In this document: positions 3,794 to 38,466 of the stretch, piece after piece
Position numbering within the stretch: the stretch's first letter is position 1
Layout: the number at the start of each line of letters is the position of its first letter
NCBI GenBank assembly: GCA_052035235.1
Contig: JBPOHT010000037.1
Location: 16,759 to 80,758 of the forward strand
Source: Pseudomonadota bacterium
Lineage (GTDB): Bacteria > Pseudomonadota > Gammaproteobacteria > Nevskiales > Nevskiaceae
DNA length: 64,000 nucleotides
Direction: 5' to 3'
Position numbers and translations under genes: made by a program
Notes under the pieces: model-generated
What the model saw: the letters and a program-made list of their open reading frames with translations, nothing else
Told to the model about the DNA's origin: nothing
Database searches by the model: none

Positions 3794-4118
3794 GGTGTTT
3801 CCCCCAAACGATGATGAATGCCGCAGCCGCGGCAAAGGGAAGCACTCCCACCTGATCCAGGCAGAGCGAGCTTCCATAGTCGATTTCCTTGTAGCTCAGC
3901 GCCCCGCACACCGCCGTGGCGCCCTCCTCGATCATGCCCACCCAGCAGATCCACACCAGCACCGCCTCCCGCACATAGTCCAGCAGCAGCCAGAACAGCA
4001 CGGCCCCCTCCACGCCCCGGAAGATGTAGAACAGCCAGCTTTGCTCCTGCGGGTCGCCGTAGGCCGCATACCCGTAGTGGGTCAGGCCCACGACCACCAG
4101 CAGGAGCGCAGCCTTCAC
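3774..4118 (-). CDS. Phage membrane protein
   Basis: 114 aa with several hydrophobic stretches; GTG start overlaps the upstream TGA. Confidence 0.6.
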   Translation of the reverse strand: MKAALLLVVVGLTHYGYAAYGDPQEQSWLFYIFRGVEGAVLFWLLLDYVREAVLVWICWVGMIEEGATAVCGALSYKEIDYGSSLCLDQVGVLPFAAAAAFIIVWGKHHAARKG

Positions 4119-25057: not shown

Positions 25058-25924
25058 TTACAGATCGGCGCCAGGTACCAGCTTGAATCCCGCCGCATTG
25101 CGATGACCACCGCCGCCATAGGCAACGGCTACCGCAGAGACATCCAGGCCTTCGTCGGTCGATCGCAGGGAGAAGACACGGCCCGTGGGCGTATCCCAGT
25201 AGCAGGCAGCGAAGGGCTCACCCTTGGCCATCAGGTGGCCGGCGTCACTGCTGAGGGTGTATGGGAGGTTGGCGACCGGCACGTCGTGACCACCGATCAC
25301 CATGCGGCGCTTGGTGACGCCCACCAGCTCGGCAATATCCTTGTGGTGCTTGCGCTCGATAGCAGCGCCTTCGGCACGCAGCAGCTGCACGTCTGTGGCC
25401 ATGAGCTGATCCCAGACCTGGAAGTCGTAGGGGTAGCTGAAGACGTTGGCCTGGATTTCTCGCGTGCCTTCCAGCTTGAACAGCCAGAGGTCGCGGTCCT
25501 GGATATGCTCGAGCAGCTTCGGAGGCTGGAGATCCGGGAGGAAGTAATTCCACGCCAGCATGGCACCGCTGCGATGCATGTCGAACAGCGCATAGATGCC
25601 AGCGTCCGGGAGCCAGCCGCCGATCGGGTGGCCGCTCAGGTCCCAGGCTGGGGGCGGCGGCGCGGGGAAGTCAGCGAGATCCGCGGCGGCTGACTTGTGA
25701 TGGTCCAATACCAGGATGCTGACAGCGGTCTGCGCCATCTCCAGCAGCACGTCGCGCTTGTAGCTGAAATCCACAAGCACCACGCGGCGTCCTGTGACGT
25801 CAGGCGGGGCCGCGCCATAGATGCCGGCATGGAACTCGACCTGATCGCCCAGCGCGGCACGCACGGCCCAGGCAGCGCCGAAGCCGTCGGCACAGTTGCC
25901 GTGATAGATGCAGAGGGTTTTCAT
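25058..25924 (-). CDS. DHH/DHHA1 family phosphoesterase
   Basis: YHGNCADG, VDFSY, LDHH, IQDRDLW, FSLRS, GGGH motifs. Confidence 0.85.
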   Translation of the reverse strand: MKTLCIYHGNCADGFGAAWAVRAALGDQVEFHAGIYGAAPPDVTGRRVVLVDFSYKRDVLLEMAQTAVSILVLDHHKSAAADLADFPAPPPPAWDLSGHPIGGWLPDAGIYALFDMHRSGAMLAWNYFLPDLQPPKLLEHIQDRDLWLFKLEGTREIQANVFSYPYDFQVWDQLMATDVQLLRAEGAAIERKHHKDIAELVGVTKRRMVIGGHDVPVANLPYTLSSDAGHLMAKGEPFAACYWDTPTGRVFSLRSTDEGLDVSAVAVAYGGGGHRNAAGFKLVPGADL

Positions 25925-26110
25925 TGTGCGCTCCAGCACAGCCCCGAGCCGAACGAGGCGGCAGGCTGCAGTGACAGGTGGGAAGACAGATGGGAAGAAG
26001 CGCCCAGTTGCCTATGTCCGCGCTGGGCACGCGGGAGGGAGTGCTGCCGTGGGGGCGGCAGCGCGTGCACAGGCTCACGCTTGGGGAAGATGCCGGGGCT
26101 CAGGGAGGCC

Positions 26111-26326
26111 TTAGCGCAGGGTCGCATGACCACGGCCCGTATAAGCCCCAAGAAGCCAGCCCGCCCACAACGCCAGCAGGCTGATCACCAGTTCCCGCCA
26201 CCACACTCCGGGAACCTCGCCACTCAGCATCACCACCAGCATTCCAGCGGCGATCACCAGCAGGCCCGAGCCGATAGCGAGCAGCCACACGGCCGTCATC
26301 AGCAAACGAGCGGCCAGGGCCTTCAT
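26111..26326 (-). CDS. Small phage membrane protein
   Basis: MKALAARLLMTAVWLL..., two hydrophobic helices; GGAGG RBS. Confidence 0.5.
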   Translation of the reverse strand: MKALAARLLMTAVWLLAIGSGLLVIAAGMLVVMLSGEVPGVWWRELVISLLALWAGWLLGAYTGRGHATLR

Positions 26327-26523
26327 CCCACACCTCCCTGCACCACCGTAATCCCCACCGCCCCACCCGCCGCCGTCATCGCCGAGGCGATCCACAGCGG
26401 CAGCGGAAGAACGATGGCGGCACAGCAGAGCGCCAGCACGGCGAAGAAGACCAGGGCGCGGAACAGCAGGCGCCCCAGCAGGGAGATCGGGTGAAGGCGG
26501 GAAGCAGCGGAGAGCGGCCTCAC
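26323..26523 (-). CDS. Small phage membrane protein
   Basis: Hydrophobic LLGRLLFRALVFFAVLALCCAAIV...; follows cro; start uncertain. Confidence 0.4.
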   Translation of the reverse strand: MRPLSAASRLHPISLLGRLLFRALVFFAVLALCCAAIVLPLPLWIASAMTAAGGAVGITVVQGGVG

Positions 26524-26524
26524 G

Positions 26525-26746
26525 TCACGAAACCTTGACGCCGGAGGGGGTAATATGCTGGGAATCCGCAGAAGTAACTGCGCCCACACCAACACGAGGG
26601 GGAATCTCGTACTTCAGCTTGAGGGCGTGGCGCTCCGGGATAGGACGCCCGTCATCCCACATATAAATCGCATTGGTGGTAATCCCCAACTGGACAGCCA
26701 GCTGGGCGACGCTTCCCACATGGGCGATGGCTTCTTGCTTGGTCAC
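26525..26746 (-). CDS. cro: Cro-like regulator
   Basis: MTKQEAIAHVGSVAQLAVQLGITTNAIYMW; divergent from the repressor. Confidence 0.8.
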   Translation of the reverse strand: MTKQEAIAHVGSVAQLAVQLGITTNAIYMWDDGRPIPERHALKLKYEIPPRVGVGAVTSADSQHITPSGVKVS

Positions 26747-26754
26747 AGGGATAT

Positions 26755-26790
26755 GTAACCATGCTTACTTCGTCACGTCAACATACTTAC
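26755..26790. promoter_or_regulatory. Two operator sites in the cro/cI intergenic region
   Basis: GTAACCATGCTTAC (26755-26768) and GTCAACATACTTAC (26777-26790); a minus-strand TTGACG -35 overlaps the second. Confidence 0.65.
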
Positions 26791-26816
26791 CCCAAGCTCA
26801 ATTACAGTCCGCCGCC

Positions 26817-27191
26817 ATGGATGAACTGAGCACGAGAGTGCGCTCTGCAAGGACGCAGGCAAAAGTAACTCAGGAGATGCTGGCAGTGTCCTGCGGCATC
26901 AAGAGAGAAGCTGTTACAGCCTGGGAAAGCGGAGCCACCAAGACAATTAGCAGCGACGTGCTGTTTGACGCCGCTCGCACGCTCGCGGTCGATCCAGAAT
27001 GGCTGGCAACCGGCCGTGGCACACGGGAACCGCTCGGCACGCGCGAGTCAGCCCCTTCATACTTCGCTGTTCGACCTGCAGCCGCCACGGTCATTGCCCT
27101 CGTGCGCCAGCTTGCCGGGGACTCCAACATCCCTGACGCCGTTTTCGACTCAGTCGCGACTCTGCTGCGCCTCATTCCCCGGCGAGCTTAG
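26817..27191 (+). CDS. CI-like repressor (XRE HTH), with no recognisable S24 peptidase domain
   Basis: LSTRVRSART...TQEMLAVSCGIKREAVTAWESG...LAVDPEWLATGRG; only 124 aa. Confidence 0.8.
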   Translation: MDELSTRVRSARTQAKVTQEMLAVSCGIKREAVTAWESGATKTISSDVLFDAARTLAVDPEWLATGRGTREPLGTRESAPSYFAVRPAAATVIALVRQLAGDSNIPDAVFDSVATLLRLIPRRA

Positions 27192-27199
27192 CCCTGGGC

Positions 27200-27433
27200 T
27201 CACTGGCCAGAAAGGCCAGGCACTAGGATTTGCCACAACTCCAGGCTGAACGCACCTGCCACCTGATCCACGATCTCCAGATTCGGAGGATGCCGCGCGT
27301 GCAGCAGGTTGTTGACGGTCTTCTGTGACGTGCCAGCGCGACGTGCCACCTCGCCCTCAGTCCATTCGTTTTTGATCATCAAATGCCGAAGATTTGAGGC
27401 AAGTGTTTCACGGGGAGAGGAGCGCTTTGCCAT
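27200..27433 (-). CDS. XRE-family HTH protein
   Basis: LASNLRHLM...WTEGEVARRAGTSQKTVNNL. Confidence 0.75.
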   Translation of the reverse strand: MAKRSSPRETLASNLRHLMIKNEWTEGEVARRAGTSQKTVNNLLHARHPPNLEIVDQVAGAFSLELWQILVPGLSGQ

Positions 27434-27442
27434 CGGCGTAAA

Positions 27443-27757
27443 TTAGTCAACCTCTCTAACGCATTGATCCACTCGATGCAAAGTGATGTCGAGCGCCTTC
27501 GTCCGGCTGTTTAGCTCCTCCAGCATTCCACGGAGCCGATCAACTTCAGCGGATACATATCGGGCATGCGCCAGGGTCTCACCACCCTCAGCTGCACCAC
27601 GCCAACCACCCCCGAACGCATAAAAATTCAACACCACCGGCAACACAGCAAACCACCACGGCGAGCTGGCCGCCAGGCATGCAATTAGCCAAATCATGGA
27701 GGTAATACTGACTCCGTAGACACGGCGCATGGTTAAGGGCTTTGTGCCGCTCATCAT
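27443..27757 (-). CDS. Membrane protein with C-terminal coiled-coil (moron-like)
   Basis: AGGAG RBS; hydrophobic IWLIACLAASSPWWFAVLPVVLNF; AT-richer than its neighbours. Confidence 0.5.
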   Translation of the reverse strand: MMSGTKPLTMRRVYGVSITSMIWLIACLAASSPWWFAVLPVVLNFYAFGGGWRGAAEGGETLAHARYVSAEVDRLRGMLEELNSRTKALDITLHRVDQCVREVD

Positions 27758-27817
27758 GGTTCTCCTAAACGTGGCCCGCAGAATATCACTCTGCATGACT
27801 ACCGTTCGTCGGAAAAT

Positions 27818-27870
27818 GTAACTTTGCTTACATTGTAATGTTGCCATGCTTACGTAAGCATGTTTACTAT
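27818..27870 (+). promoter_or_regulatory. Early (pL-like) promoter with three operators, upstream of the DGR-containing operon
   Basis: Operators at 27818-27831, 27840-27853 and 27854-27867; TTGCCA-N18-TACTAT (27841-27870). Confidence 0.65.
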
Positions 27871-27894
27871 GCTCCCACACCCCAGGGAGCACCC

Positions 27895-28335
27895 ATGACC
27901 ACCATCCAGAAGCTCGACGCCGCCGGCAACCTCCTGCCCGCCGACACCACCGCCCACGCCATCCTCGTCATCAACGGCCTGCGCATCGACGTGCGCCCCC
28001 GCGAGTTCTCCGAGAACCACGCCGCCGCCATGGCCGAGTGCCAGGCCGTGGACCTGCTGGGCCTGACCTGGCGCGCCGCCACCCGCCGCGAAGTCCTCGC
28101 CCTCGTGGACGACGAGAACCCCAACGGCCCCTTCGACAAGACCCTCTTCCCCAACCTGCCGGAATACGGCTGGCTCTGGACCTCCACTCCCTACGCCCGC
28201 GAGGAAGACCCTGCCGCTCCGGTTTGTGCCTGGGGCGTCCCCCTCTACGACGGCGACGCCCACCTCGCCAACCGCCGCTACGAAGGGCTCGCCCTCCCCG
28301 TGTCGCCGTTGGCCGCGCCCGCCAGTCAGTCCTAG
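27895..28335 (+). CDS. DGR target protein 1 (DUF1566/Lcl C-type-lectin-like, 146 aa)
   Basis: WRAAT..E...D...P..D...FP.....WTST...AWGV; 3' end carries VR1. Confidence 0.85.
   Translation: MTTIQKLDAAGNLLPADTTAHAILVINGLRIDVRPREFSENHAAAMAECQAVDLLGLTWRAATRREVLALVDDENPNGPFDKTLFPNLPEYGWLWTSTPYAREEDPAAPVCAWGVPLYDGDAHLANRRYEGLALPVSPLAAPASQS
28211..28326 (+). repeat. DGR variable repeat VR1
   Basis: 116 bp, 13 mismatches to TR, all at TR adenines. Confidence 0.95.
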
Positions 28336-28380
28336 GGCCTTGGGGCTTTTCCTCCTCAATCCATCACCGGAGTTCCATTC

Positions 28381-28818
28381 GTGACCACCATCCAGAAGCT
28401 CGACGCCGCCGGCAACCAACTGCCCGCCGACACCACCGCCCACGCCATCCTCGTCATCAACGGCCTGCGCATCGACGTGCGCCCCCGCACCAAGAAGGCC
28501 TGGGCCAAGGCCATCGGCAGCTGCGATGAAGGCGATCTGCTCGCGCTCCCCTGGCGAGCCGCCACCCTGCCGGAAGTCCTGTCCGTAGCCGACTTCAACA
28601 ACCCCAACGGCCCCTTCGACAAGACCCTCTTCCCCAACCTGCCGGAATACGGCTGGCTCTGGACCTCCACCCCCTACGCCCGCGAGGAAGACCCTGCCGC
28701 TCCGGTTTGTGCCTGGGGCGTCGACCTCTGCGACGGCTACGCCGACATCGGCGGCCGCTACGACGAAGGGCTCGCCCTCCCCGTGTCGCCGTTGGCCGCG
28801 CCCGCCAGTCAGTCCTAG
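28381..28818 (+). CDS. DGR target protein 2 (145 aa)
   Basis: Paralog of target 1; GTG start; 3' end carries VR2. Confidence 0.85.
   Translation: MTTIQKLDAAGNQLPADTTAHAILVINGLRIDVRPRTKKAWAKAIGSCDEGDLLALPWRAATLPEVLSVADFNNPNGPFDKTLFPNLPEYGWLWTSTPYAREEDPAAPVCAWGVDLCDGYADIGGRYDEGLALPVSPLAAPASQS
28694..28809 (+). repeat. DGR variable repeat VR2
   Basis: 116 bp, 13 mismatches to TR, all at TR adenines. Confidence 0.95.
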
Positions 28819-28896
28819 GGCTTTGGGGCTTTCCCTTCCATCCATGCGGAACGCAGCGATGCCTATCGACATCACCCATCACCAGGAAGCCCGCGC

Positions 28897-29115
28897 ATGA
28901 GCGGCGTCACCCGCATCGGCTCTGTGGTCGTGGAAACCACAGACCGTGCCCTGGCGCTGCGCGTGGCCCAGGCCGCTGCCAGCGTGCTGGAACACCGCGG
29001 CTTCATGCGCACCGAGGGTGTTGCCGTGCGCTGGGCCAGCGCCTGGCACTACGACGAGCACGGCTTCGGCAGCTCGGAGAGCGGCGCGGCTGCCGGCAAC
29101 CAGGAACAGGGGTAG
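28897..29115 (+). CDS. Hypothetical phage protein
   Basis: 72 aa in the early operon; AGGA upstream. Confidence 0.45.
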   Translation: MSGVTRIGSVVVETTDRALALRVAQAAASVLEHRGFMRTEGVAVRWASAWHYDEHGFGSSESGAAAGNQEQG

Positions 29116-29118
29116 ACC

Positions 29119-29307
29119 ATGACCACCTCACTGCCGCCCGGCTCCTTCACCGCGCCCCACCCGGAGGACTCCTGCCACTCGCAGCCCGACGCACCGGCCG
29201 AGCGCATCGGCGAGTGCGACCTGTGCGGCGAGGTGGACCATCACCTGGTGCAGGGCTCCTGCGAAACCTGCCGCCGCCACTACCGCATGGAGGCTGGCCA
29301 ATGCTGA
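29119..29307 (+). CDS. Small protein with CxxC..CxxC zinc-finger motif
   Basis: ECDLCGEVDHHLVQGSCETC. Confidence 0.5.
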   Translation: MTTSLPPGSFTAPHPEDSCHSQPDAPAERIGECDLCGEVDHHLVQGSCETCRRHYRMEAGQC

Positions 29308-29465
29308 CCATCCAGCGCGTGGAAGCGGCGCCGCTGGCCGGCATCCCCATCAGTCAGGCCGAGCTGCGTGGCGTGACGGTGGACGACTTCCTGCGCCGCG
29401 CCCTGGCGCGCGGCTTCGCCGTGGCCCAGCACAAATCCACGTTCTTCCTCGTCCGCATCCACTGA
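29301..29465 (+). CDS. Hypothetical phage protein (54 aa)
   Basis: GGAGG RBS at 29289; MLTIQRVEAAP... Confidence 0.5.
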   Translation: MLTIQRVEAAPLAGIPISQAELRGVTVDDFLRRALARGFAVAQHKSTFFLVRIH

Positions 29466-29476
29466 CGGAGATCCCC

Positions 29477-29725
29477 ATGCGCAAGCCTATCCCGCCCATT
29501 GTCCTGCAGGAAAACTTCAAACCGCAGTCGCTGGAAGTGCAGAAGCAAACCCTCGCCCGCCTGGTGCACGAGACGGACCTGGACCAGAACCGCGGCTGGC
29601 TGCATCCCAACGTCGCCGCGCTCCGCCGCTACGACCTCAAGTCGATCTTCCACACCCTCTCGAATCTGCCGGCGCCGGTTGCAGCCGGCGAGCCCACCCA
29701 GCCCTCCAGCCAGGAAGCCGCATGA
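29477..29725 (+). CDS. Hypothetical phage protein
   Basis: GGAG RBS; ATGA overlap with the next gene. Confidence 0.55.
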   Translation: MRKPIPPIVLQENFKPQSLEVQKQTLARLVHETDLDQNRGWLHPNVAALRRYDLKSIFHTLSNLPAPVAAGEPTQPSSQEAA

Positions 29726-30234
29726 ACCTGTTCCAGCGCTTTGCCCAGTGGCTCATCCAGCGCGCCAGCGCGCGCGCGCCGGACTTCATCATCGGCGAGC
29801 GTGCCGAGCCGTACATCCGCCGCTGGTGGGTGATCCCGCGCAACCCGTTCTTCAACATCTACCTGCACGAGATCCTGCGCGGCGACCCTGACCGCGCCCT
29901 GCACTGCCACCCCTGGGCCAACGTCTCCATCCTGCTCCAGGGCGGCTATATCGAGCGCCTACCGCTGCGCCAGGCGCAACAGCCGAGCTGGGACTACGTG
30001 CCCGGCTACACCTATGACGTGGTGCGCAAGGCCGGGCAGGCCTGGGGGCGCCTCGGCCACTTCCGCCATCGGCTGTTCGTGCCGGAGGGCGGCCACTGCT
30101 GGAGCCTGTTCCTCACCGGGCCGGTGTATCGCCGCTGGGGCTTCCACTGCAAGGCCGACTGGGTCTACTGGCGCGATTACGTCAGCGACAAGGACAAGGG
30201 CCTGGTTGGGCGCGGCTGCGGGGAGCATGCATGA
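29722..30234 (+). CDS. Cupin-like phage protein
   Basis: YLHEILRGD.DRALHCHPW..S.LLQGGY.E ... FRHRL ... WSLFLTGP...WGF. Confidence 0.6.
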   Translation: MNLFQRFAQWLIQRASARAPDFIIGERAEPYIRRWWVIPRNPFFNIYLHEILRGDPDRALHCHPWANVSILLQGGYIERLPLRQAQQPSWDYVPGYTYDVVRKAGQAWGRLGHFRHRLFVPEGGHCWSLFLTGPVYRRWGFHCKADWVYWRDYVSDKDKGLVGRGCGEHA

Positions 30235-30428
30235 GCGCCACCCAGAACCACCCCGGCACGCCGCGCTGCGCGGACTGCACGCTGCCCATGCACGGCACCG
30301 ACCAGCACGAAGGCCCGGACCAGAAGCTCTATCACGGCGCCTGCTTTGGCCGCCTCTTCACCACGGCGCGCCACTACCAGGAAGGCCAGGGCAATCTGAG
30401 CTTTGCTCACGAAGAGCAGCGGGAGTAA
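30231..30428 (+). CDS. Small Cys/His-containing phage protein
   Basis: CADC...YHGAC; ATGA-coupled. Confidence 0.45.
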   Translation: MSATQNHPGTPRCADCTLPMHGTDQHEGPDQKLYHGACFGRLFTTARHYQEGQGNLSFAHEEQRE

Positions 30429-30507
30429 TGGGATGTTGCTTCCTGAAATTCCCACACGTGGTCACTCGACAGCGGCCGAGCCGACGCAATTCCAAGGGGA
30501 TTCGTAA

Positions 30508-30960
30508 ATGATCGCCGAAGAAATGGCAGAGCACATCATCAAGGGCACGGCGCCGGACCGGAAGACGCTGTGCGGGTGGTATGAGGCCCTGCAACAGGCA
30601 CCGTCCGCAGGCGCAGCAATTGCTGTAGTACGCCACAAGCCGTGCAAGAACCACGGCGGGCGCCCGGATGTTCAGTCGAACATCGACTGGCTGGGCGAAC
30701 CTCCCGCAGAAGGAACCCACCTATTTGCCGGGACGAGGACCGCAGATGGCGTCTCCGATAGCTTCCGCGCCGACGCACTCTACTCCGCCCTCACCCAGGT
30801 CATGGAGTTGCTGCGTCAGGATAGTGATGACCCTGAAGACCCCATGTCGAATTTCCGGTTCGACTCTCGCTGGGAGGAGATAGCGGAGGTCGCGGATGCG
30901 GCGCTGGAGTTACACGCCGAATCGAATCTGCTGCGATCAGGGCAACCCAAGGGCCGCTAG
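30508..30960 (+). CDS. Hypothetical phage protein
   Basis: 150-aa ORF in operon orientation. Confidence 0.5.
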   Translation: MIAEEMAEHIIKGTAPDRKTLCGWYEALQQAPSAGAAIAVVRHKPCKNHGGRPDVQSNIDWLGEPPAEGTHLFAGTRTADGVSDSFRADALYSALTQVMELLRQDSDDPEDPMSNFRFDSRWEEIAEVADAALELHAESNLLRSGQPKGR

Positions 30961-31036
30961 CCGCCCTGATCGCCGCGAACTACCACCACGCATCCCGCCG
31001 CGCCAAAGCGGCCTGACCCACCCACCCGAGAAACCC

Positions 31037-31618
31037 ATGACCAATCTCAGCATCATCCTCGCCGCCGGCGACAGCATCCGCATTTCGCGGCATGGCGCCC
31101 AGACCACCATGCTTCTGGAGGATTGCCAGGCGCTGCAGTCCGCGCCCACGGTCGGCACTGCCGGAGCCTGCACGCAGCCGCGCCACACCAAGCTGGATGC
31201 CAGCGGCACCGAGCTGCCCCTCACCAGCCGCGATCACTCCTTCCTGATCGACCGCAAGGCCGGCCTGATCATCGACGTGCGCGCCCTGCATCGCGGCAAC
31301 CACGAGAGCTGCACCCGCTTCGCCGCCGAGTCCAAGGCCCTGGACCGCACCTGGCGCCTGGGCACCGTGGAGGAGCTGTTCCTCTACGTCGCCGACCGCA
31401 CCAAGCAGGACCCCGCCGTCGATCGGGACCTGTTCCCGCGCCTGGGCAACGACTTGCTCTGGACCTGCACGCCGGATGCAAAGCCGTCCGATCCTGCCGC
31501 TCCGGTTTATGCCTGGGGCGTCAACCTCAGCAACGGCCTCGCCGGCGTCAGCAACCGCAACCGCGAAGGGCTCGCCCTCCCCGTGTCGCCGTTGGCCGCG
31601 CCCGCCAGTCAGTCCTAG
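31037..31618 (+). CDS. DGR target protein 3 (193 aa, with an N-terminal extension)
   Basis: HTKLDASG, IDRKAGL, WRLGTVEEL, DRDLFP, LWTCT; 3' end carries VR3. Confidence 0.85.
   Translation: MTNLSIILAAGDSIRISRHGAQTTMLLEDCQALQSAPTVGTAGACTQPRHTKLDASGTELPLTSRDHSFLIDRKAGLIIDVRALHRGNHESCTRFAAESKALDRTWRLGTVEELFLYVADRTKQDPAVDRDLFPRLGNDLLWTCTPDAKPSDPAAPVYAWGVNLSNGLAGVSNRNREGLALPVSPLAAPASQS
31494..31609 (+). repeat. DGR variable repeat VR3
   Basis: 116 bp, 9 mismatches to TR, all at TR adenines. Confidence 0.95.
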
Positions 31619-31660
31619 GGCTTTGGGCTGCGACCTTTCAATCCACACCGGAGACTCTTC

Positions 31661-32098
31661 GTGACCAAGATCCTAAAGTACGACGCCAAGGGAAACCTGC
31701 TGCCGGCGGATTCCACCAAGCACGCCATCCTGCTGGTCAACGATCTGCGCATCGACGTGCGCAAGCGCAAGGCCGTGCCGCATGCCCAGGCCATGGCCCA
31801 GTGCGCCAAGGTGAATCTGCTGGGTGCCACCTGGCGCTCCGCCACGGTTCGCGAGGCCTGGGCGCTGGCGGACCTCACCAACCCGAACGGGCCGTTCGAC
31901 AAGAACCTGTTCCCGCACTTCCCGGAATACGGCTGGCTCTGGACGTCCGACCCCTATGCCCGCGAGGCCGATTCTGCCGCTCCGGTTTTTGCCTGGGGCG
32001 TCGGCCTCCCCAACGGCTTCGCCTACGTCGGCAGCCGCCACTACGAAGGGCTCGCCCTCCCCGTGTCGCCGTTGGCCGCGCCCGCCAGTCAGTCCTAG
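31661..32098 (+). CDS. DGR target protein 4 (145 aa)
   Basis: Paralog of targets 1 and 2; 3' end carries VR4; directly upstream of avd. Confidence 0.85.
   Translation: MTKILKYDAKGNLLPADSTKHAILLVNDLRIDVRKRKAVPHAQAMAQCAKVNLLGATWRSATVREAWALADLTNPNGPFDKNLFPHFPEYGWLWTSDPYAREADSAAPVFAWGVGLPNGFAYVGSRHYEGLALPVSPLAAPASQS
31974..32089 (+). repeat. DGR variable repeat VR4
   Basis: 116 bp, 14 mismatches to TR, all at TR adenines. Confidence 0.95.
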
Positions 32099-32114
32099 GG
32101 CATAGGGGCTTTTA

Positions 32115-32558
32115 ATGTCTTTTGACCTGCCGCCGATCATCAAGAAAGCCGAGCTTGTCCGGGCCATGGCCGAGGCCGCCGTAGCGACGTGGCCGCGCCA
32201 TCACCGGTATGCGCACGGCGGTGAGCTGCGGCGGCAGGCAAAGGAAGTGGTACGCCTGGCCCACAAGGCCTGGACGGACCGCGGCGAGCGGCCGCAGCAC
32301 CTGACCAGCCTCGCCGCGGCGGTCGATGACCTCAAGGCCGATCTGCGCCTAGGCCAGATGATCCGGGTGTTCCGGAGCTTCGGGCAGTTCGACGCGATCA
32401 TGGTCGAGGCCAAAGACCTCGGGAAACAATGCGGAGCCCTGAAAAGACGGCATCCGCTGCAGGAGCACTCCAAGGGCCAGAATGCGCAGGCCTCTCGCGC
32501 CGGCGCAGCGCGCCCAGATACTGAGTACCCCGGCCGCCTCGCAGGGGCCATGGGATGA
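32115..32558 (+). CDS. avd: DGR accessory variability determinant (Avd, four-helix bundle)
   Basis: Basic helical protein: WPRHHRYAHGGELRR, LKADLRLG, LGKQCGAL; sits between target and TR/RT. Confidence 0.8.
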   Translation: MSFDLPPIIKKAELVRAMAEAAVATWPRHHRYAHGGELRRQAKEVVRLAHKAWTDRGERPQHLTSLAAAVDDLKADLRLGQMIRVFRSFGQFDAIMVEAKDLGKQCGALKRRHPLQEHSKGQNAQASRAGAARPDTEYPGRLAGAMG

Positions 32559-33910
32559 CGAAGCCTGCCTACGCCAACACGGGATGGCCGGCCTGGTCCA
32601 AAGAGTCGGGGGACGCTGCCGCTCCGGTTTATGCCTGGGGCGTCAACCTCAACAACGGCAACGCCAACATCAACAACCGCAACAACGAAGGGCTCGCCCT
32701 CCCCGTGTCGCCGTTGGCCGCGCCCGCCAGTGAGTATCAGAGTGCGGGGCGCATCAGCCGACAGGATCTGTTCAAGGCCTTCTGGACTGCCCGCAAGGGC
32801 AAGGTGCCCAGCTGCAACCGCATGCGCTTCGAAGCCGACTGGCACGAGCGCATCACCTTCCTGGAGCAGCAGATCAACAGCCACATGTGGCTGCCGCTGC
32901 CCACGTCCGTCTTCGTGGCAGAAACCCCCAAGGCCCGGCAGATCCACGCGCCGGACTTCGAGGACCGCGTCGTCCACCACTGGATCGTGCCCAAGCTGGA
33001 ACAGCGCTACGAGCCCATCTTCATCGCGGACTCCTACGCCAACCGTCGCGGCAAAGGCTGCCACGCCGCCGTGCGCCAGCTCACTCGCTTCGTCCGCCAG
33101 GTCGCCAGCGGCCAGGGCCGCGGCTGGTATCTGCAGCTCGATATCGCCAACTGCTTCAACTCCATCAACCGCAAGCGCCTCTGGCGCATGGTCCGCCGCA
33201 TGATGCAGCGCTGGCGCATGCCGGAGATCGAGCAGCGCGTCGTGCACGCCCTGCTCCGCCGCTCCCCGCTGGAGCAGGGCATCCGCAGCCGTGCCTCACC
33301 GGCGCAGCTGGCCAAGGTCCCGTACCACAAGCGCCTGGAGGCCGCGGCGCCCGGCTGCGGACTTCCCATCGGCAGCCTGCCCAGCCAGTTCCTGGCCAAC
33401 GTCTACCTCAACGCCCTGGACCAGTTCGTCAAGCACGTCCTCAAGGCCAAGCGCTACCTGCGCTACGCCGACGACTTCGTCCTGGTCCACGAGAGCCGCG
33501 AGCAGCTCCAGACCTGGCACCGCCAGATCGAGGCCTTCCTGCACCGCGAGCTGGGCCTGCGCCTGAAGGACGACGTCCGCCTGCGGCCGCTGGAAGACGG
33601 CATCGACTTCCTGGGCTACATCGTGCGCCCCACCCACACCCTCGTGCGCCGCCGCGTCGTCACCCACGCCAAGACCAAGCTACAGGCCTGGGAGCGCGCC
33701 CACGTGCGCGCAGACGCCATCGTCGCCACGCCAGAGGCCCTGCGCGCCGGGCTCGCGGTCTGGCGCAGCTACCAGGGCCATTTCCAGCACGCCAATACGC
33801 ACAGGCTCCAGCAGGGCCTGCAGGAGCGCTTCCCCTGGCTGCCCGCGCTCCAACGCCGGCGGCGCACCGATCACAGGCATGAAGGCCGGACATTGAGGAT
33901 TGCCATATGA
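32555..33910 (+). CDS. DGR reverse transcriptase (TR in frame at the 5' end; start uncertain)
   Basis: ARKGK, RQIHAPDFEDRVVHH, FIADSYANRRGKG.H, LQLDIANCFNSI, GLPIGSLPSQFLANVYL, YLRYADDF, IDFLGY. Confidence 0.95.
   Translation: MTKPAYANTGWPAWSKESGDAAAPVYAWGVNLNNGNANINNRNNEGLALPVSPLAAPASEYQSAGRISRQDLFKAFWTARKGKVPSCNRMRFEADWHERITFLEQQINSHMWLPLPTSVFVAETPKARQIHAPDFEDRVVHHWIVPKLEQRYEPIFIADSYANRRGKGCHAAVRQLTRFVRQVASGQGRGWYLQLDIANCFNSINRKRLWRMVRRMMQRWRMPEIEQRVVHALLRRSPLEQGIRSRASPAQLAKVPYHKRLEAAAPGCGLPIGSLPSQFLANVYLNALDQFVKHVLKAKRYLRYADDFVLVHESREQLQTWHRQIEAFLHRELGLRLKDDVRLRPLEDGIDFLGYIVRPTHTLVRRRVVTHAKTKLQAWERAHVRADAIVATPEALRAGLAVWRSYQGHFQHANTHRLQQGLQERFPWLPALQRRRRTDHRHEGRTLRIAI
32616..32731 (+). ncRNA. 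DGR template repeat (TR)
   Basis: Nine AAC codons plus TAT and ATC; A-rich master copy of the four VRs; lies between avd and the RT core. Confidence 0.93.
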
Positions 33911-34251
33911 CGCAGAACACCAACACCGAGCGCGACAGCATGAACGCCACACCCATTCGGGTTTTTGTGATGAACGACATGGAGTGGTGGGCAGGCGCAT
34001 GCACCCCCGAGGAAATGCTCGCCTACTACATGCATGAGACGGGCGTTACTCGCGAGGAAGCGCTGGGCGATGACGATCCCAATGCGCTGCCGGAGCCGCT
34101 GACCGACGAGCAGATGGACAAGCTCCGCATTGCCGAGGTGGACGAAAACGAGCGCCCGACCGGCCAGCGCCCCACCTTCCGCGAGGCCCTGGACGCCATG
34201 ATCGCAGCGGGCCAGGAATTCCCATGCCTGTTTGCCTCAACGGAGTGGTAG
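33907..34251 (+). CDS. Hypothetical acidic phage protein
   Basis: ATGA overlap with the RT stop. Confidence 0.6.
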   Translation: MTQNTNTERDSMNATPIRVFVMNDMEWWAGACTPEEMLAYYMHETGVTREEALGDDDPNALPEPLTDEQMDKLRIAEVDENERPTGQRPTFREALDAMIAAGQEFPCLFASTEW

Positions 34252-34253
34252 CC

Positions 34254-34667
34254 ATGCCGGCAGGACTGGGCATAGCTGATGATCCGGTTGTCGGCCACAA
34301 AACCTTCCTCAGTAAGGAAGGCGGCTTCCGCCACCTGCCGCTGCTGCAGTCCGAAGCCGATGCGATCCTGAAGAAGTGCGATGAGGAAGATGCCAGGCGC
34401 AAGGAGCTGATGCCGGACGAGAGCACCGCCATCCGCATGATGTTCGATGCGTGGCTTCGCTTGAAGCAGCTGGGGTGGAAGGAAGCCATCTATTGCCCCA
34501 AGGACGGGAGCGTGTTTGACGCGATTGAGCCTGGCTCTACTGGCATCCACCACTGCAACTACCAAGGCGAATGGCCCAACGGCAGCTGGTGGACCCACAG
34601 CGAAGACGACGTCTTCCCCAGCCATCCGGTGCTGTTCAAAGTCCCGCAGGAGCCCAAGACCCCATGA
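34254..34667 (+). CDS. Hypothetical phage protein
   Basis: WLRLKQLGWKEAIYCPKDGS; starts 2 nt after the previous stop. Confidence 0.55.
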   Translation: MPAGLGIADDPVVGHKTFLSKEGGFRHLPLLQSEADAILKKCDEEDARRKELMPDESTAIRMMFDAWLRLKQLGWKEAIYCPKDGSVFDAIEPGSTGIHHCNYQGEWPNGSWWTHSEDDVFPSHPVLFKVPQEPKTP

Positions 34668-35347
34668 GCGTCATCGAAGGAGGCCGCATGAACAGCAAAA
34701 GACTGCCCCCAGTCCCGGACGCTTTGGCGTACTCGCGGAACTACGCGATCGCCAGCCCTTACCTGAATAGCACAGCTCGGGAGCACATCGAGGGACTGTG
34801 TGACCTGCTGGAGCAGACCGAAGCAGCGCGCCTGGCCGCCGTCGAATCTGCGGGAGCATTGCAGCCGAGCGTGAGCGCCACAGAGGGCGATAGGATCGCG
34901 GCGTTGGAGAGGCAGTTGGCCGAAGCCCTGGAATCGCGCGCATTCACCCAGCAGTGGTACGCCGAGCGATGGAAGACGCTGGAGGACTGGTTCCGCAGCG
35001 AGGGCAAAGACCTGCCCATCCGCGACCAGTTCTGGAGCATCCTCGCCAACGGCGTCAAGGATGCGAACACCCCGCCGACTTATGCCCAGCAGCTCAACAT
35101 CGCCAAGCACCGCGCCGAACGTGCAGAGAAAGAGCGCGCCGCTTTGATGGGCGGGATGCAGGCTGTCGCGAAGGACGCCGCGACCTTTCGCTATCTCCAG
35201 AAGCTGGCAGAGGATGAGGAGAATCCGAGGCTTCATCCTGCTTTCTATGTTGGGAAAGCGGAGGCTTACGACGTGGCCGCAGGCGAATTGGAAGCCATCC
35301 TGACTCCGGAAATCCGGCAACTGCTGGTTGGGAAGAATCAGGGATGA
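34664..35347 (+). CDS. Hypothetical coiled-coil phage protein
   Basis: ATGA overlaps at both ends. Confidence 0.55.
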   Translation: MSVIEGGRMNSKRLPPVPDALAYSRNYAIASPYLNSTAREHIEGLCDLLEQTEAARLAAVESAGALQPSVSATEGDRIAALERQLAEALESRAFTQQWYAERWKTLEDWFRSEGKDLPIRDQFWSILANGVKDANTPPTYAQQLNIAKHRAERAEKERAALMGGMQAVAKDAATFRYLQKLAEDEENPRLHPAFYVGKAEAYDVAAGELEAILTPEIRQLLVGKNQG

Positions 35348-35643
35348 TCTGCCCAGACTGCAAAGGCGCCAAGGACGTTTTCGCCTTCGTCAACACCGGC
35401 CCCGACGCCAGCAAGCACCGCAGCGGCATGATGCCGTGCCGGCGATGCAGCGGCCGCGGCGCGGTCCCGTTCCAGATGGCGGAGTGGATGCGCCAGGGCC
35501 GGCTGATGCGCGATGCCCGCGTGGCGCGCCGCGAGAGCCTACGGGAAGCAGCCCAACGCCTGGGCATGGGCAGCGCCGTTCTTTCGCGTCTGGAGCAGGG
35601 CTACGAGCCGATACCGGAGTCCTTGTTGAGGGCGATGCAGTGA
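35344..35643 (+). CDS. Zinc finger plus XRE-HTH protein
   Basis: CPDC...CRRC, then RESLREAAQRLGMGSAVLSRLEQG. Confidence 0.7.
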   Translation: MICPDCKGAKDVFAFVNTGPDASKHRSGMMPCRRCSGRGAVPFQMAEWMRQGRLMRDARVARRESLREAAQRLGMGSAVLSRLEQGYEPIPESLLRAMQ

Positions 35644-35648
35644 TCCAG

Positions 35649-35957
35649 TCACTCACCCCGCTGTCTCGGAGCATCGGACCTGTCCGGCCGGCAGGTCGGG
35701 GCCAGTCGAAACTCCGGCATGCGGCCGCCACAGCGGCCACAGACGGCCTTGGCGACCAGCGTGGCGCAGGAGATGTCGCCGTATCGCTCGATCAAGTCCA
35801 GGGGATCAAACTGTCCGCACTTCTGGCACCTGGTGCAGTGCAGCCGGATCCAATCCTGCCCGACGTGATCAGACAGTTCACCGATTGGGCCAGGGTTCGG
35901 GTTTTCGTCGCGGCGCCTCATCAGGCCAGCAGGATACCGCGCACAGCGCCCCGGCAC
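35649..35957 (-). CDS. Small zinc-ribbon protein, antisense to the operon
   Basis: LHCTRC...LIERYG...AVCGRCG; start uncertain. Confidence 0.5.
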   Translation of the reverse strand: MPGRCARYPAGLMRRRDENPNPGPIGELSDHVGQDWIRLHCTRCQKCGQFDPLDLIERYGDISCATLVAKAVCGRCGGRMPEFRLAPTCRPDRSDAPRQRGE

Positions 35958-35992
35958 CTCAACGAGGTCGCCCAGGTCCCGGAGGCGCTTCC

Positions 35993-36142
35993 ATGAAACC
36001 CACGCCGCCTATCCATGCACTGCTGCAGCTACTGGCCCAGCAGGCCGTGCGCGAGCATCTAACAGCAGTTCGCCAACCGAATCAGCAGGATGCGCCCGCG
36101 CGCTCAAATCACCCTCTGCCGAACAAATCGGCCAACCGGTAG
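35993..36142 (+). CDS. 49-aa protein directly upstream of the integrase (directionality-factor candidate)
   Basis: GGAGG RBS at 35981; MKPTPPIHALLQLLAQQAVREHL. Confidence 0.5.
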   Translation: MKPTPPIHALLQLLAQQAVREHLTAVRQPNQQDAPARSNHPLPNKSANR

Positions 36143-36152
36143 CGTGTCCCAG

Positions 36153-37772
<1,620 letters not shown>

Positions 37773-37786
37773 CCAGACAGACGACC

Positions 37787-37815
37787 ATTGTAGTCTGTTA
37801 CCACTGATCAATCAA
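37787..37815 (-). promoter_or_regulatory. Sigma70 promoter for tRNA-fMet
   Basis: TTGATT-N17-TACAAT, 14 nt upstream of the tRNA. Confidence 0.65.
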
Positions 37816-37896
37816 CCACTTTGCGCTGTCTTGAGCCTGCTTTTCGAAGGCTTGGACAACCTCCGGACGATTGGCTCCGGAGTACTGCTTTTGGGG

Positions 37897-37981
37897 TGGT
37901 GCCCACGGAGAGACTCGAACTCCCATGGCTCTCGCCGTTACCACCTCAAGGTAGTGTGTCTACCAATTCCACCACGTGGGC
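37897..37981 (-). tRNA. leuU: tRNA-Leu (GAG)
   Basis: 85 nt, long variable arm, CCA end; downstream of secG (symbol by synteny). Confidence 0.95.
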
Positions 37982-38040
37982 ACTGCTTACCAAAACCACC
38001 GACGGATCACGATGCTGCCGAGGTCTGTCGAGGGGCGCGG

Positions 38041-38069
38041 ATTGTAGCGCCCCTTTTCGAGTTTGTCTC
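38041..38069 (-). promoter_or_regulatory. Putative promoter for tRNA-Leu
   Basis: GAGACA-N17-TACAAT followed by a GC-rich discriminator. Confidence 0.45.
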
Positions 38070-38091
38070 GAATTTGTCGCCGGATTCGTGC

Positions 38092-38466
38092 TTATTCCGG
38101 AACGACCGGCGCTGCCGGGGCGGCAGGCTCGGCAGCCGGGGCCGCTGCAGGGGCATCCGGAGCCGGAACGACCGGTGCGGGCACCGCGGCCGGAGCCTCG
38201 GTCTTCACCGAGTCGACCACCGAAGTGGCTTCCTTGGTGCCGTGGACCAGGTAGGCCAGGGCCAGGCTGGCGATGAAAAACACCGTCGCCAGATAGGACG
38301 TGGCACGCGACAGGAAATTCGCCGAGCCGCGTGAGCCGAAGACGGTGCCCGAGGCGCCGCTGCCGAAGGCGGCGCCGGCGTCGGCGCCCTTACCGTGCTG
38401 CAGCAGGATCAGACCGACGAGGCCGATACCCACCAACACCTGCAGGATGACCAGAAACGTATGCAT
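38092..38466 (-). CDS. secG: Preprotein translocase subunit SecG
   Basis: LILLQHGKGADAGAAFGSGASGTVFGSRGSANFLSRAT. Confidence 0.97.
   Translation of the reverse strand: MHTFLVILQVLVGIGLVGLILLQHGKGADAGAAFGSGASGTVFGSRGSANFLSRATSYLATVFFIASLALAYLVHGTKEATSVVDSVKTEAPAAVPAPVVPAPDAPAAAPAAEPAAPAAPVVPE

Follow-up and report, generated by a model that had tools for sequence, protein, structure and literature searches.

Predicted operator sites and promoters at the cro/cI and DGR loci

The window analysed here, a stretch of 64,000 nucleotides from a Nevskiaceae genome (contig JBPOHT010000037.1), carries a prophage with divergent cro- and cI-like genes and, beyond cI, an operon that contains a diversity-generating retroelement (DGR). 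We investigated five 14-bp palindromic sites that lie in two clusters, one between cro and cI and the other upstream of the first DGR target. The cro-like gene (26525..26746, minus strand) starts with GTG and encodes a 73-aa protein that matches Pfam P22_Cro (E 1.1e-9) and a PHROG transcriptional regulator family, with N15 Cro and P22 Cro as its best PDB matches. The cI-like gene (26817..27191, plus strand) encodes a 124-aa protein, hereafter CI, with a helix-turn-helix (HTH) domain (Pfam HTH_3, E 5e-11; PHROG 2328, transcriptional repressor, E 1.4e-16).

The DGR operon lies on the plus strand and begins with target 1 (27895..28335), the first gene after the promoter of the second cluster, preceded by the ribosome-binding site (RBS) AGGGAG at 27884-27889. 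Targets 2 (28381..28818), 3 (31037..31618) and 4 (31661..32098), also on this strand, follow, and all four possess the Pfam Lcl_C lectin fold and a variable repeat (VR) that aligns with the template repeat (TR). The next gene, avd (32115..32558, plus strand), matches a Pfam bAvd-like family at E 8e-5, below the family cut-off, and its product shares 30-41% identity with the open reading frames (ORFs) in the Avd position beside related reverse transcriptase (RT) loci. The TR itself (32616..32735, plus strand) belongs to a five-copy repeat family, and the RT ORF (32555..33910, plus strand; Pfam RVT_1, E 1.9e-21) is open through the TR, with an uncertain true start. When the four VRs were compared with the one TR, every mismatch fell at a TR adenine, which identifies the system as a DGR. 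A scan of ORFs and of GC content at third codon positions placed the four targets, Avd, the TR, RT and several genes of unknown function in a one-directional early-left array of 7.7 kb (27895..35643, plus strand), which is densely coding with short, GC-rich gaps and is followed by a serine integrase gene (36090-37739, plus strand; PHROG 95). The minus strand of the prophage carries the late and replication genes, ending with those for a DHH phosphoesterase and a replication-initiator-like protein and with cro.

An earlier note on this DNA had listed five 14-bp sites and, in each cluster, a pair spaced by 22 bp from start to start. We read the region on both strands and checked the coordinates by script; as a result, all five sites were located there and both spacings proved correct. 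Sites 1 (26755-26768, GTAACCATGCTTAC) and 2 (26777-26790, GTCAACATACTTAC) indeed fall between cro and cI, in the 70-bp gap that separates the divergent genes, and deviate from the perfect palindrome at one and three positions, respectively. The second cluster consists of site 3 (27818-27831, GTAACTTTGCTTAC), site 4 (27840-27853, GTTGCCATGCTTAC) and site 5 (27854-27867, GTAAGCATGTTTAC, with the reverse complement GTAAACATGCTTAC; one mismatch). The consensus GTAA-N6-TTAC given for them is exact in three of the five, while the left half reads GTCA in site 2 and GTTG in site 4, and the conserved core of all five is the right half, (C)ATGCTTAC.

These sequences are rare. GTAA-N6-TTAC occurs three times in the window, as compared with 0.02 expected, and ten times in the 4.95-Mb genome, with three of the ten at the present locus. 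A search with the perfect palindrome GTAAGCATGCTTAC, allowing up to three mismatches, returned exactly the five sites in 64 kb (1.0 expected), and none of 100 shuffled sequences reached five. Furthermore, when the genome was scored with a weight matrix derived from the five sites, these ranked first to fifth, and their leave-one-out scores of 15.6-23.6 bits were at or above those of nearly all other genome positions, the best unrelated site scoring 19.5. A 43-nt direct repeat with 72% identity is common to both clusters (26748-26790 and 27811-27853). A candidate third site in the first cluster, at 26792-26805, was rejected, since its match at 8 of 14 positions is no more than chance would give, with 422 windows of this kind in 64 kb.

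Both clusters lie over predicted outward-facing promoters. In cluster 1, the predicted cro promoter (26753..26781, minus strand) was read from the sequence as a -35 hexamer TTGACG (26781..26776), a 17-nt spacer and a -10 hexamer TTACAT (26758..26753), with site 1 overlapping the -10 and site 2 the -35. This putative promoter was missed by a sigma-70 consensus scan, as its -10 matches at only three of six positions. In cluster 2, the promoter-like sequence TTGCCA (27841-27846), an 18-nt spacer and TACTAT (27865-27870), on the plus strand, is separated by 24 nt from the start codon of target 1 (ATG, 27895), as the earlier note had stated. The claim that three sites cover this promoter also held: site 4 lies on the -35, site 5 on the spacer and the -10, and site 3 is located 22 bp further upstream, ahead of the -35. 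It is the sole sigma-70-like match on the plus strand in both 26400-28000 and 27800-38200. The best sites, 1 and 5, with one mismatch each, are thus the ones that cover a -10 hexamer, each at one of the outward-facing promoters. The O1-type sites of lambdoid phages are arranged in this way.

A predicted repressor switch over the DGR operon

The best-supported reading of this locus is a standard switch of right and left operators (OR and OL) with the DGR in the early-left operon. We consider it reasonably probable, with some room for doubt, that the five sites are the OR and OL of a temperate prophage immunity region, that the DGR belongs to the operon equivalent to that of lambda PL, and that it would be silent in the lysogen. 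Three lambdoid hallmarks are present, namely divergent cro and cI genes with operators between them, a second cluster of the same motif beyond cI on an outward-facing early promoter, and a CI DNA-binding domain of the 434/P22 c2 HTH family. Indeed, CI residues 1-67 were aligned by phmmer with 434 Cro (E 7.5e-7), the 434 repressor (E 0.004) and P22 c2 (E 0.006). The recognition helix of CI reads KREAV, as compared with KQQSI and TQQSI in the 434 proteins, and would thus fit a different half-site.

The operators of phage 434, to which the 434 repressor and 434 Cro bind, are 14 bp long, with the sequence ACAA-N6-TTGT. The present sites have the same length and, as imperfect palindromes, the same 4-N6-4 geometry, in which conserved outer half-sites of 4 bp enclose a 6-bp centre, and their two clusters flank cI, each over an outward-facing early promoter, as do OR1-3 and OL1-3 of 434; the CI HTH also aligns end to end with those of 434 Cro and the 434 repressor. 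In contrast to 434, the half-site is GTAA instead of ACAA and the helix is KREAV instead of (K/T)QQSI, CI has 124 aa and lacks an S24 domain, only two OR sites are significant, two OL sites abut, and a leftward two-gene operon is inserted between cI and OL.

According to the proposed mechanism, the short 434/P22-type CI would recognise all five sites, and Cro probably would as well. At OR, CI would occupy sites 1 and 2, which are 22 bp or two helical turns apart, over the -10 and -35 of the cro promoter, and would turn off cro together with the downstream replication and late genes. At OL, sites 3-5 would place the repressor over the -35, spacer and -10 of the rightward promoter that would be the counterpart of lambda PL (hereafter PL). 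The transcript from PL is predicted to begin about 18 nt upstream of target 1 and could, by sequence, traverse the four targets, avd, TR and RT toward the integrase. Since the repressor would cover PL, we propose that the whole DGR is kept silent in the lysogen; upon infection or lifted repression, the DGR would be among the earliest genes expressed, and adenine mutagenesis would act on the replicating phage genomes. The earlier note had suggested that the targets, Avd, TR and RT are repressed in the lysogen and expressed at lytic entry, and this would follow from the architecture, which supports it well. We infer from the sequence the identity of the binder, the activity of the promoter, the continuity of the transcript over 6 kb and the silence of the DGR in the lysogen.

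With regard to the repressor itself, CI appears to be a short, DicA-like repressor that would be functionally CI-like, and not a classical lambda, 434 or P22 CI, because it has 124 aa with only HTH families. Its distant matches in phage records carry the annotation repressor CI. In NCBIfam, DicA and RstR were weak matches to CI, and DicC to Cro. The arrangement of a short, HTH-only CI divergent from a Cro-like gene is that of DicA/DicC in the Escherichia coli prophage Qin and of RstR in CTXphi, whereas the similarity scores are far below the family cut-offs and indicate a resemblance of type, not membership.

A partial experimental precedent for the coupling of a repressor to a DGR may be found, by analogy, in the Bacteroides hankyphage, in which silencing of the CI-like RepC raised both phage gene expression and DGR activity (PMC12135933). 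As would be the case here, a CI-like repressor restrains the phage genes and its release raises DGR activity; in contrast, the hankyphage is transposable, of the Mu-like type, its DGR targets a tail fibre, and no operator was described at its DGR promoter (PMC12135933). At the present locus, the operators lie directly on the early-operon promoter, and the operon opens with a DGR target.

Recurrence of the layout in other DGR phages

We then analysed RT loci with 10 kb of upstream sequence (n = 23) by a composition-aware, unbiased scan for palindrome families that form two clusters. Such families were found in 6 of the 23 loci and in 0 of the 23 shuffled controls, and the five sites described above were the top family in the window. 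Six other temperate phages and prophages showed the same layout with unrelated operators, with paired palindromes at cro/cI and again upstream of the DGR operon. The link between switch and DGR drawn in the earlier note is therefore a recurrent architecture, and not an accident of the present locus.

One of them is Burkholderia phage Magia (MT701587), in which three ATAACCAAAGTTAT-type palindromes lie between cro and the repressor gene and two more form a second cluster. The latter overlaps a promoter, TTGACA-16-TATAAT, that matches the consensus at 12 of 12 positions and faces the first lectin-fold target, followed by RecT, Avd, RT and the integrase. Both phages have cro on the minus strand, the repressor gene on the plus strand, small minus-strand genes and then a plus-strand early operon that opens with a lectin-fold DGR target and also includes Avd, RT and the integrase, and both have 14-bp palindromic operators in two clusters. 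On the other hand, the Magia operator (ATAACCAAAGTTAT) is unrelated, the two repressors share no detectable similarity, and in Magia about 400 nt separate the promoter from target 1, which lies downstream. Magia also has a perfect CTGT-N8-ACAG box and a leftward promoter before the minus-strand gene between cI and OL (about 929-976 of locus L164), whereas the present prophage has none. The gene behind this LexA box may encode an antirepressor. The Magia genome announcement mentions neither operators nor DGR regulation (Gafford-Gaby et al. 2021, PMC7883833).

In the D3-like Pseudomonas phage phPA-G, ATTGCCGGCGGTTAT pairs are found at cro/cI and over TTGACT-17-GATAGT, upstream of the Avd/RT operon. 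A prophage in a Nevskia metagenome-assembled genome (MAG), L107, encodes the closest RT (55% identity) and carries TAAACCTGTGGTTTA-type sites at cro/cI and a further group that precedes, by 40-80 bp, the first gene of an operon encoding three targets, RecT, an exonuclease, SSB, Avd and RT. The same arrangement was observed in the Pseudomonas prophages L139, L141 and L142. In a Rheinheimera soli prophage (L108) with the same gene order, a TGACTATAATCA motif lies upstream of both the cI-like gene and target 1; the unbiased scan did not recover it in this AT-rich genome, and we count it as weak support.

The half-site was also sought among the loci of CI homologues. GTAAG/CTTAC palindromes lie upstream of the CI homologues of Lysobacter niastensis (L047; GTAAGCGGGACTTAC, 3797-3964) and an Arenimonas MAG (L014; CGCTTACATGTAAGCG, 3871-3925), which share 43-47% identity with CI, and none was present in the other 704 kb of CI homologue loci. 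These two loci, too small a number for a firm link, are suggestive of a CI HTH clade that reads the GTAAG/CTTAC half-site. A search of 5.8 billion proteins returned only one contig, whose DNA was 100% identical. A Logan contig (L166, SRR34217545; 2,598 bp) is 100% identical to window positions 25328-27925 and ends at the repeat shared by targets 1 and 2; it probably derives from the same strain.

The operators are of a very well-known kind, and a repressor-controlled early operon is what phage biologists would expect, as the layout is common. The timing and place of DGR mutagenesis in the phage life cycle are largely unknown, and our literature searches found no description of repressor operators on a DGR promoter or of a DGR under direct OL/PL control. 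We tentatively raise the possibility, which we regard as doubtful though worth stating, that such control is a conserved design of many temperate phages of Solimonas/Nevskia, Burkholderia and Pseudomonas, with the repressor timing hypermutation. If so, synthesis of the template RNA, of RT and of the small, signal-less lectin-fold targets would be confined to the first minutes that follow infection or induction. Each burst would release progeny whose early intracellular binders are newly varied and perhaps act against host defences, and the prophage copy would remain genetically stable. For the present locus, control by the switch would confine diversification to lytic replication and make the four small lectin-fold proteins immediate-early products, which would narrow the search for their binding partners; if the prediction for the DGR is false, the operators remain an ordinary immunity switch. 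The value of the locus is that it offers a clean handle on DGR timing, with one promoter, five defined sites and one small repressor, and the cultured phages with the same layout, Magia and the D3-like Pseudomonas phages, make tests in laboratory hosts possible.

Counter-evidence and alternative explanations

Several observations weigh against a repressor switch that controls the whole DGR. As for the operators, OR holds only two significant sites while OL holds three, and sites 4 and 5 abut without a spacer to give jointly a perfect 18-bp palindrome (27845-27862). Their centres are only 14 bp apart, which is unusual for two simultaneously bound dimers and may not allow both to bind. No relative sharing this immunity region was found in the genomes of the family, and the CI homologues in the genome and viral collections are at most 51% identical. 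As for induction, a Pfam scan of CI gave HTH families only, with no S24 peptidase (LexA-like autocleavage) domain. A LexA box is absent from the prophage although the host lexA gene bears one upstream (C3:30374; CTGT-N8-ACAG, TACTGTTCAAACGAACAGTA), and a Xanthomonas-type LexA box is also absent from the prophage. Furthermore, a consensus scan may miss promoters in an organism of 67% GC, and a third HTH protein, described below, could be the binder or a co-regulator of cluster 2. Finally, a hairpin with a T-rich tail and a terminator-like score, which the earlier note overlooked, lies between target 4 and avd (hairpin plus TTTTAATG, 32091-32110), and in Magia a terminator is annotated immediately ahead of the second target/Avd/RT block. 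The hairpin leaves room, as judged from the sequence, for partly independent control of the avd-TR-RT core, which may need antitermination or its own weak promoter.

The hairpin and the Magia terminator, together with an AT-richer stretch that begins at 32108, are what would be expected if the operators controlled target 1 while avd-TR-RT were at least partly driven by its own promoter or separated from PL by a termination event. The switch would in that case not strictly govern mutagenesis, and low-level diversification could persist in lysogens; indeed, uninduced hankyphage lysogens had detectable DGR activity (PMC12135933). We consider this explanation unlikely, though the strongest of the alternatives, since the region from 27.9 to 38.2 kb holds no sigma-70-like promoter on the plus strand besides the operator-covered one, and avd starts only 16 nt after the stop codon of target 4. 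In addition, the hairpin-forming sequence AGTCCTAGGGC..GGGGCT recurs after every VR, and not after the TR (28330-28360, 28813-28845, 31613-31640 and 32091-32110), and is, by analogy, more likely to be a part of the target than a terminator. By analogy with other DGRs, it probably helps to mark the target end. A paper on DGR target recognition reportedly describes a hairpin near the target end.

The next alternative concerns a leftward two-gene operon (27200-27757), also overlooked by the earlier note, situated between cI and OL and convergent with cI. Its first gene (27443..27757, minus strand; RBS AGGAGA at 27766..27761) encodes a small predicted membrane protein of 104 aa with no family match in Pfam, PHROG, NCBIfam or PADLOC, and its second gene (27200..27433, minus strand) encodes the third HTH protein, a 77-aa XRE protein (Pfam HTH_26/HTH_3, E about 2e-5) with weak HipB-like matches and no similarity to CI. 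Neither PADLOC nor NCBIfam gave anything informative on the operon, which could be an exclusion or toxin-antitoxin-like module, or supply an early regulator antisense toward cI. Cluster 2 is thus not merely the leader of the DGR but a divergent intergenic control region that also faces this operon, which itself lies in the lowest-GC stretch of the window (27001-28000, 0.59).

In this alternative, the sites, or at least OL with its 18-bp palindrome, would be bound mainly by the 77-aa protein, which would autoregulate the leftward operon, perhaps an accessory or toxin-antitoxin-like one, and the DGR promoter would be controlled only incidentally or not at all. The divergent region around cluster 2 must indeed include the promoter of the leftward operon, and the leftward -10 candidates TTACAT (27821..27816) and TACAAT (27837..27832) overlap or flank the sites; the former overlaps site 3 and is identical to the -10 of cro, at the equivalent place. 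The leftward operon thus probably shares the operators of cluster 2. As the principal binder, however, the 77-aa protein is a poor candidate, and we regard this account as rather improbable: the same motif with its 22-bp pair is found at cro/cI, the canonical location for a repressor, the 4-N6-4 geometry matches the 434 family, which includes CI but not the 77-aa protein, and the comparator phages that lack such a third HTH gene still have two clusters.

It is very improbable that the repeats do not bind protein at all, being either duplicated AT-rich promoter remnants, with which the 43-nt direct repeat is compatible, or, for the 18-bp palindrome flagged in a loose terminator scan (27845-27862), an RNA hairpin or terminator, because each unit is itself palindromic, the five outrank all other matches in 4.95 Mb, both clusters keep the 22-bp phasing, the palindrome precedes the predicted PL start and hence falls outside that transcript, Rfam gave no matches, and analogous paired palindromes occur in six other phages and prophages. 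As an intrinsic terminator, 27845-27862 was rejected, since its stem has only three GC pairs, its tail TTTACTATGC is a poor T-run, and no plus-strand gene ends upstream.

Returning to the OR/OL switch, a few minor observations may be added on its sites and transcripts. An exact search for the 18-bp palindrome in genome contigs returned unrelated taxa only. Elsewhere in the host genome, an intergenic region (C32:5574-5622) contains two more GTAA-N6-TTAC-like sites, GTAAACGAGCTTAC and GTGAATTTACTTAC, at a distance of 35 bp, and a homologue of CI or Cro was found neither near them nor elsewhere in the genome. The predicted 5' end of the PL transcript (27871-27890) would form a hairpin of 6 bp, GCUCCC/GGGAGC, in which the Shine-Dalgarno sequence of target 1 is paired (z-score -1.9 in a 90-nt fold). 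The -10 of the cro promoter ends 6 nt before the GTG, with the predicted transcript start near the GTG at 26746, and from this geometry the cro mRNA may be leaderless or nearly so. The cI mRNA may be leaderless as well, with its ATG at 26817 lacking a Shine-Dalgarno sequence and TACAGT located at 26803-26808; lambda cI transcribed from the promoter PRM provides a precedent for a leaderless mRNA.

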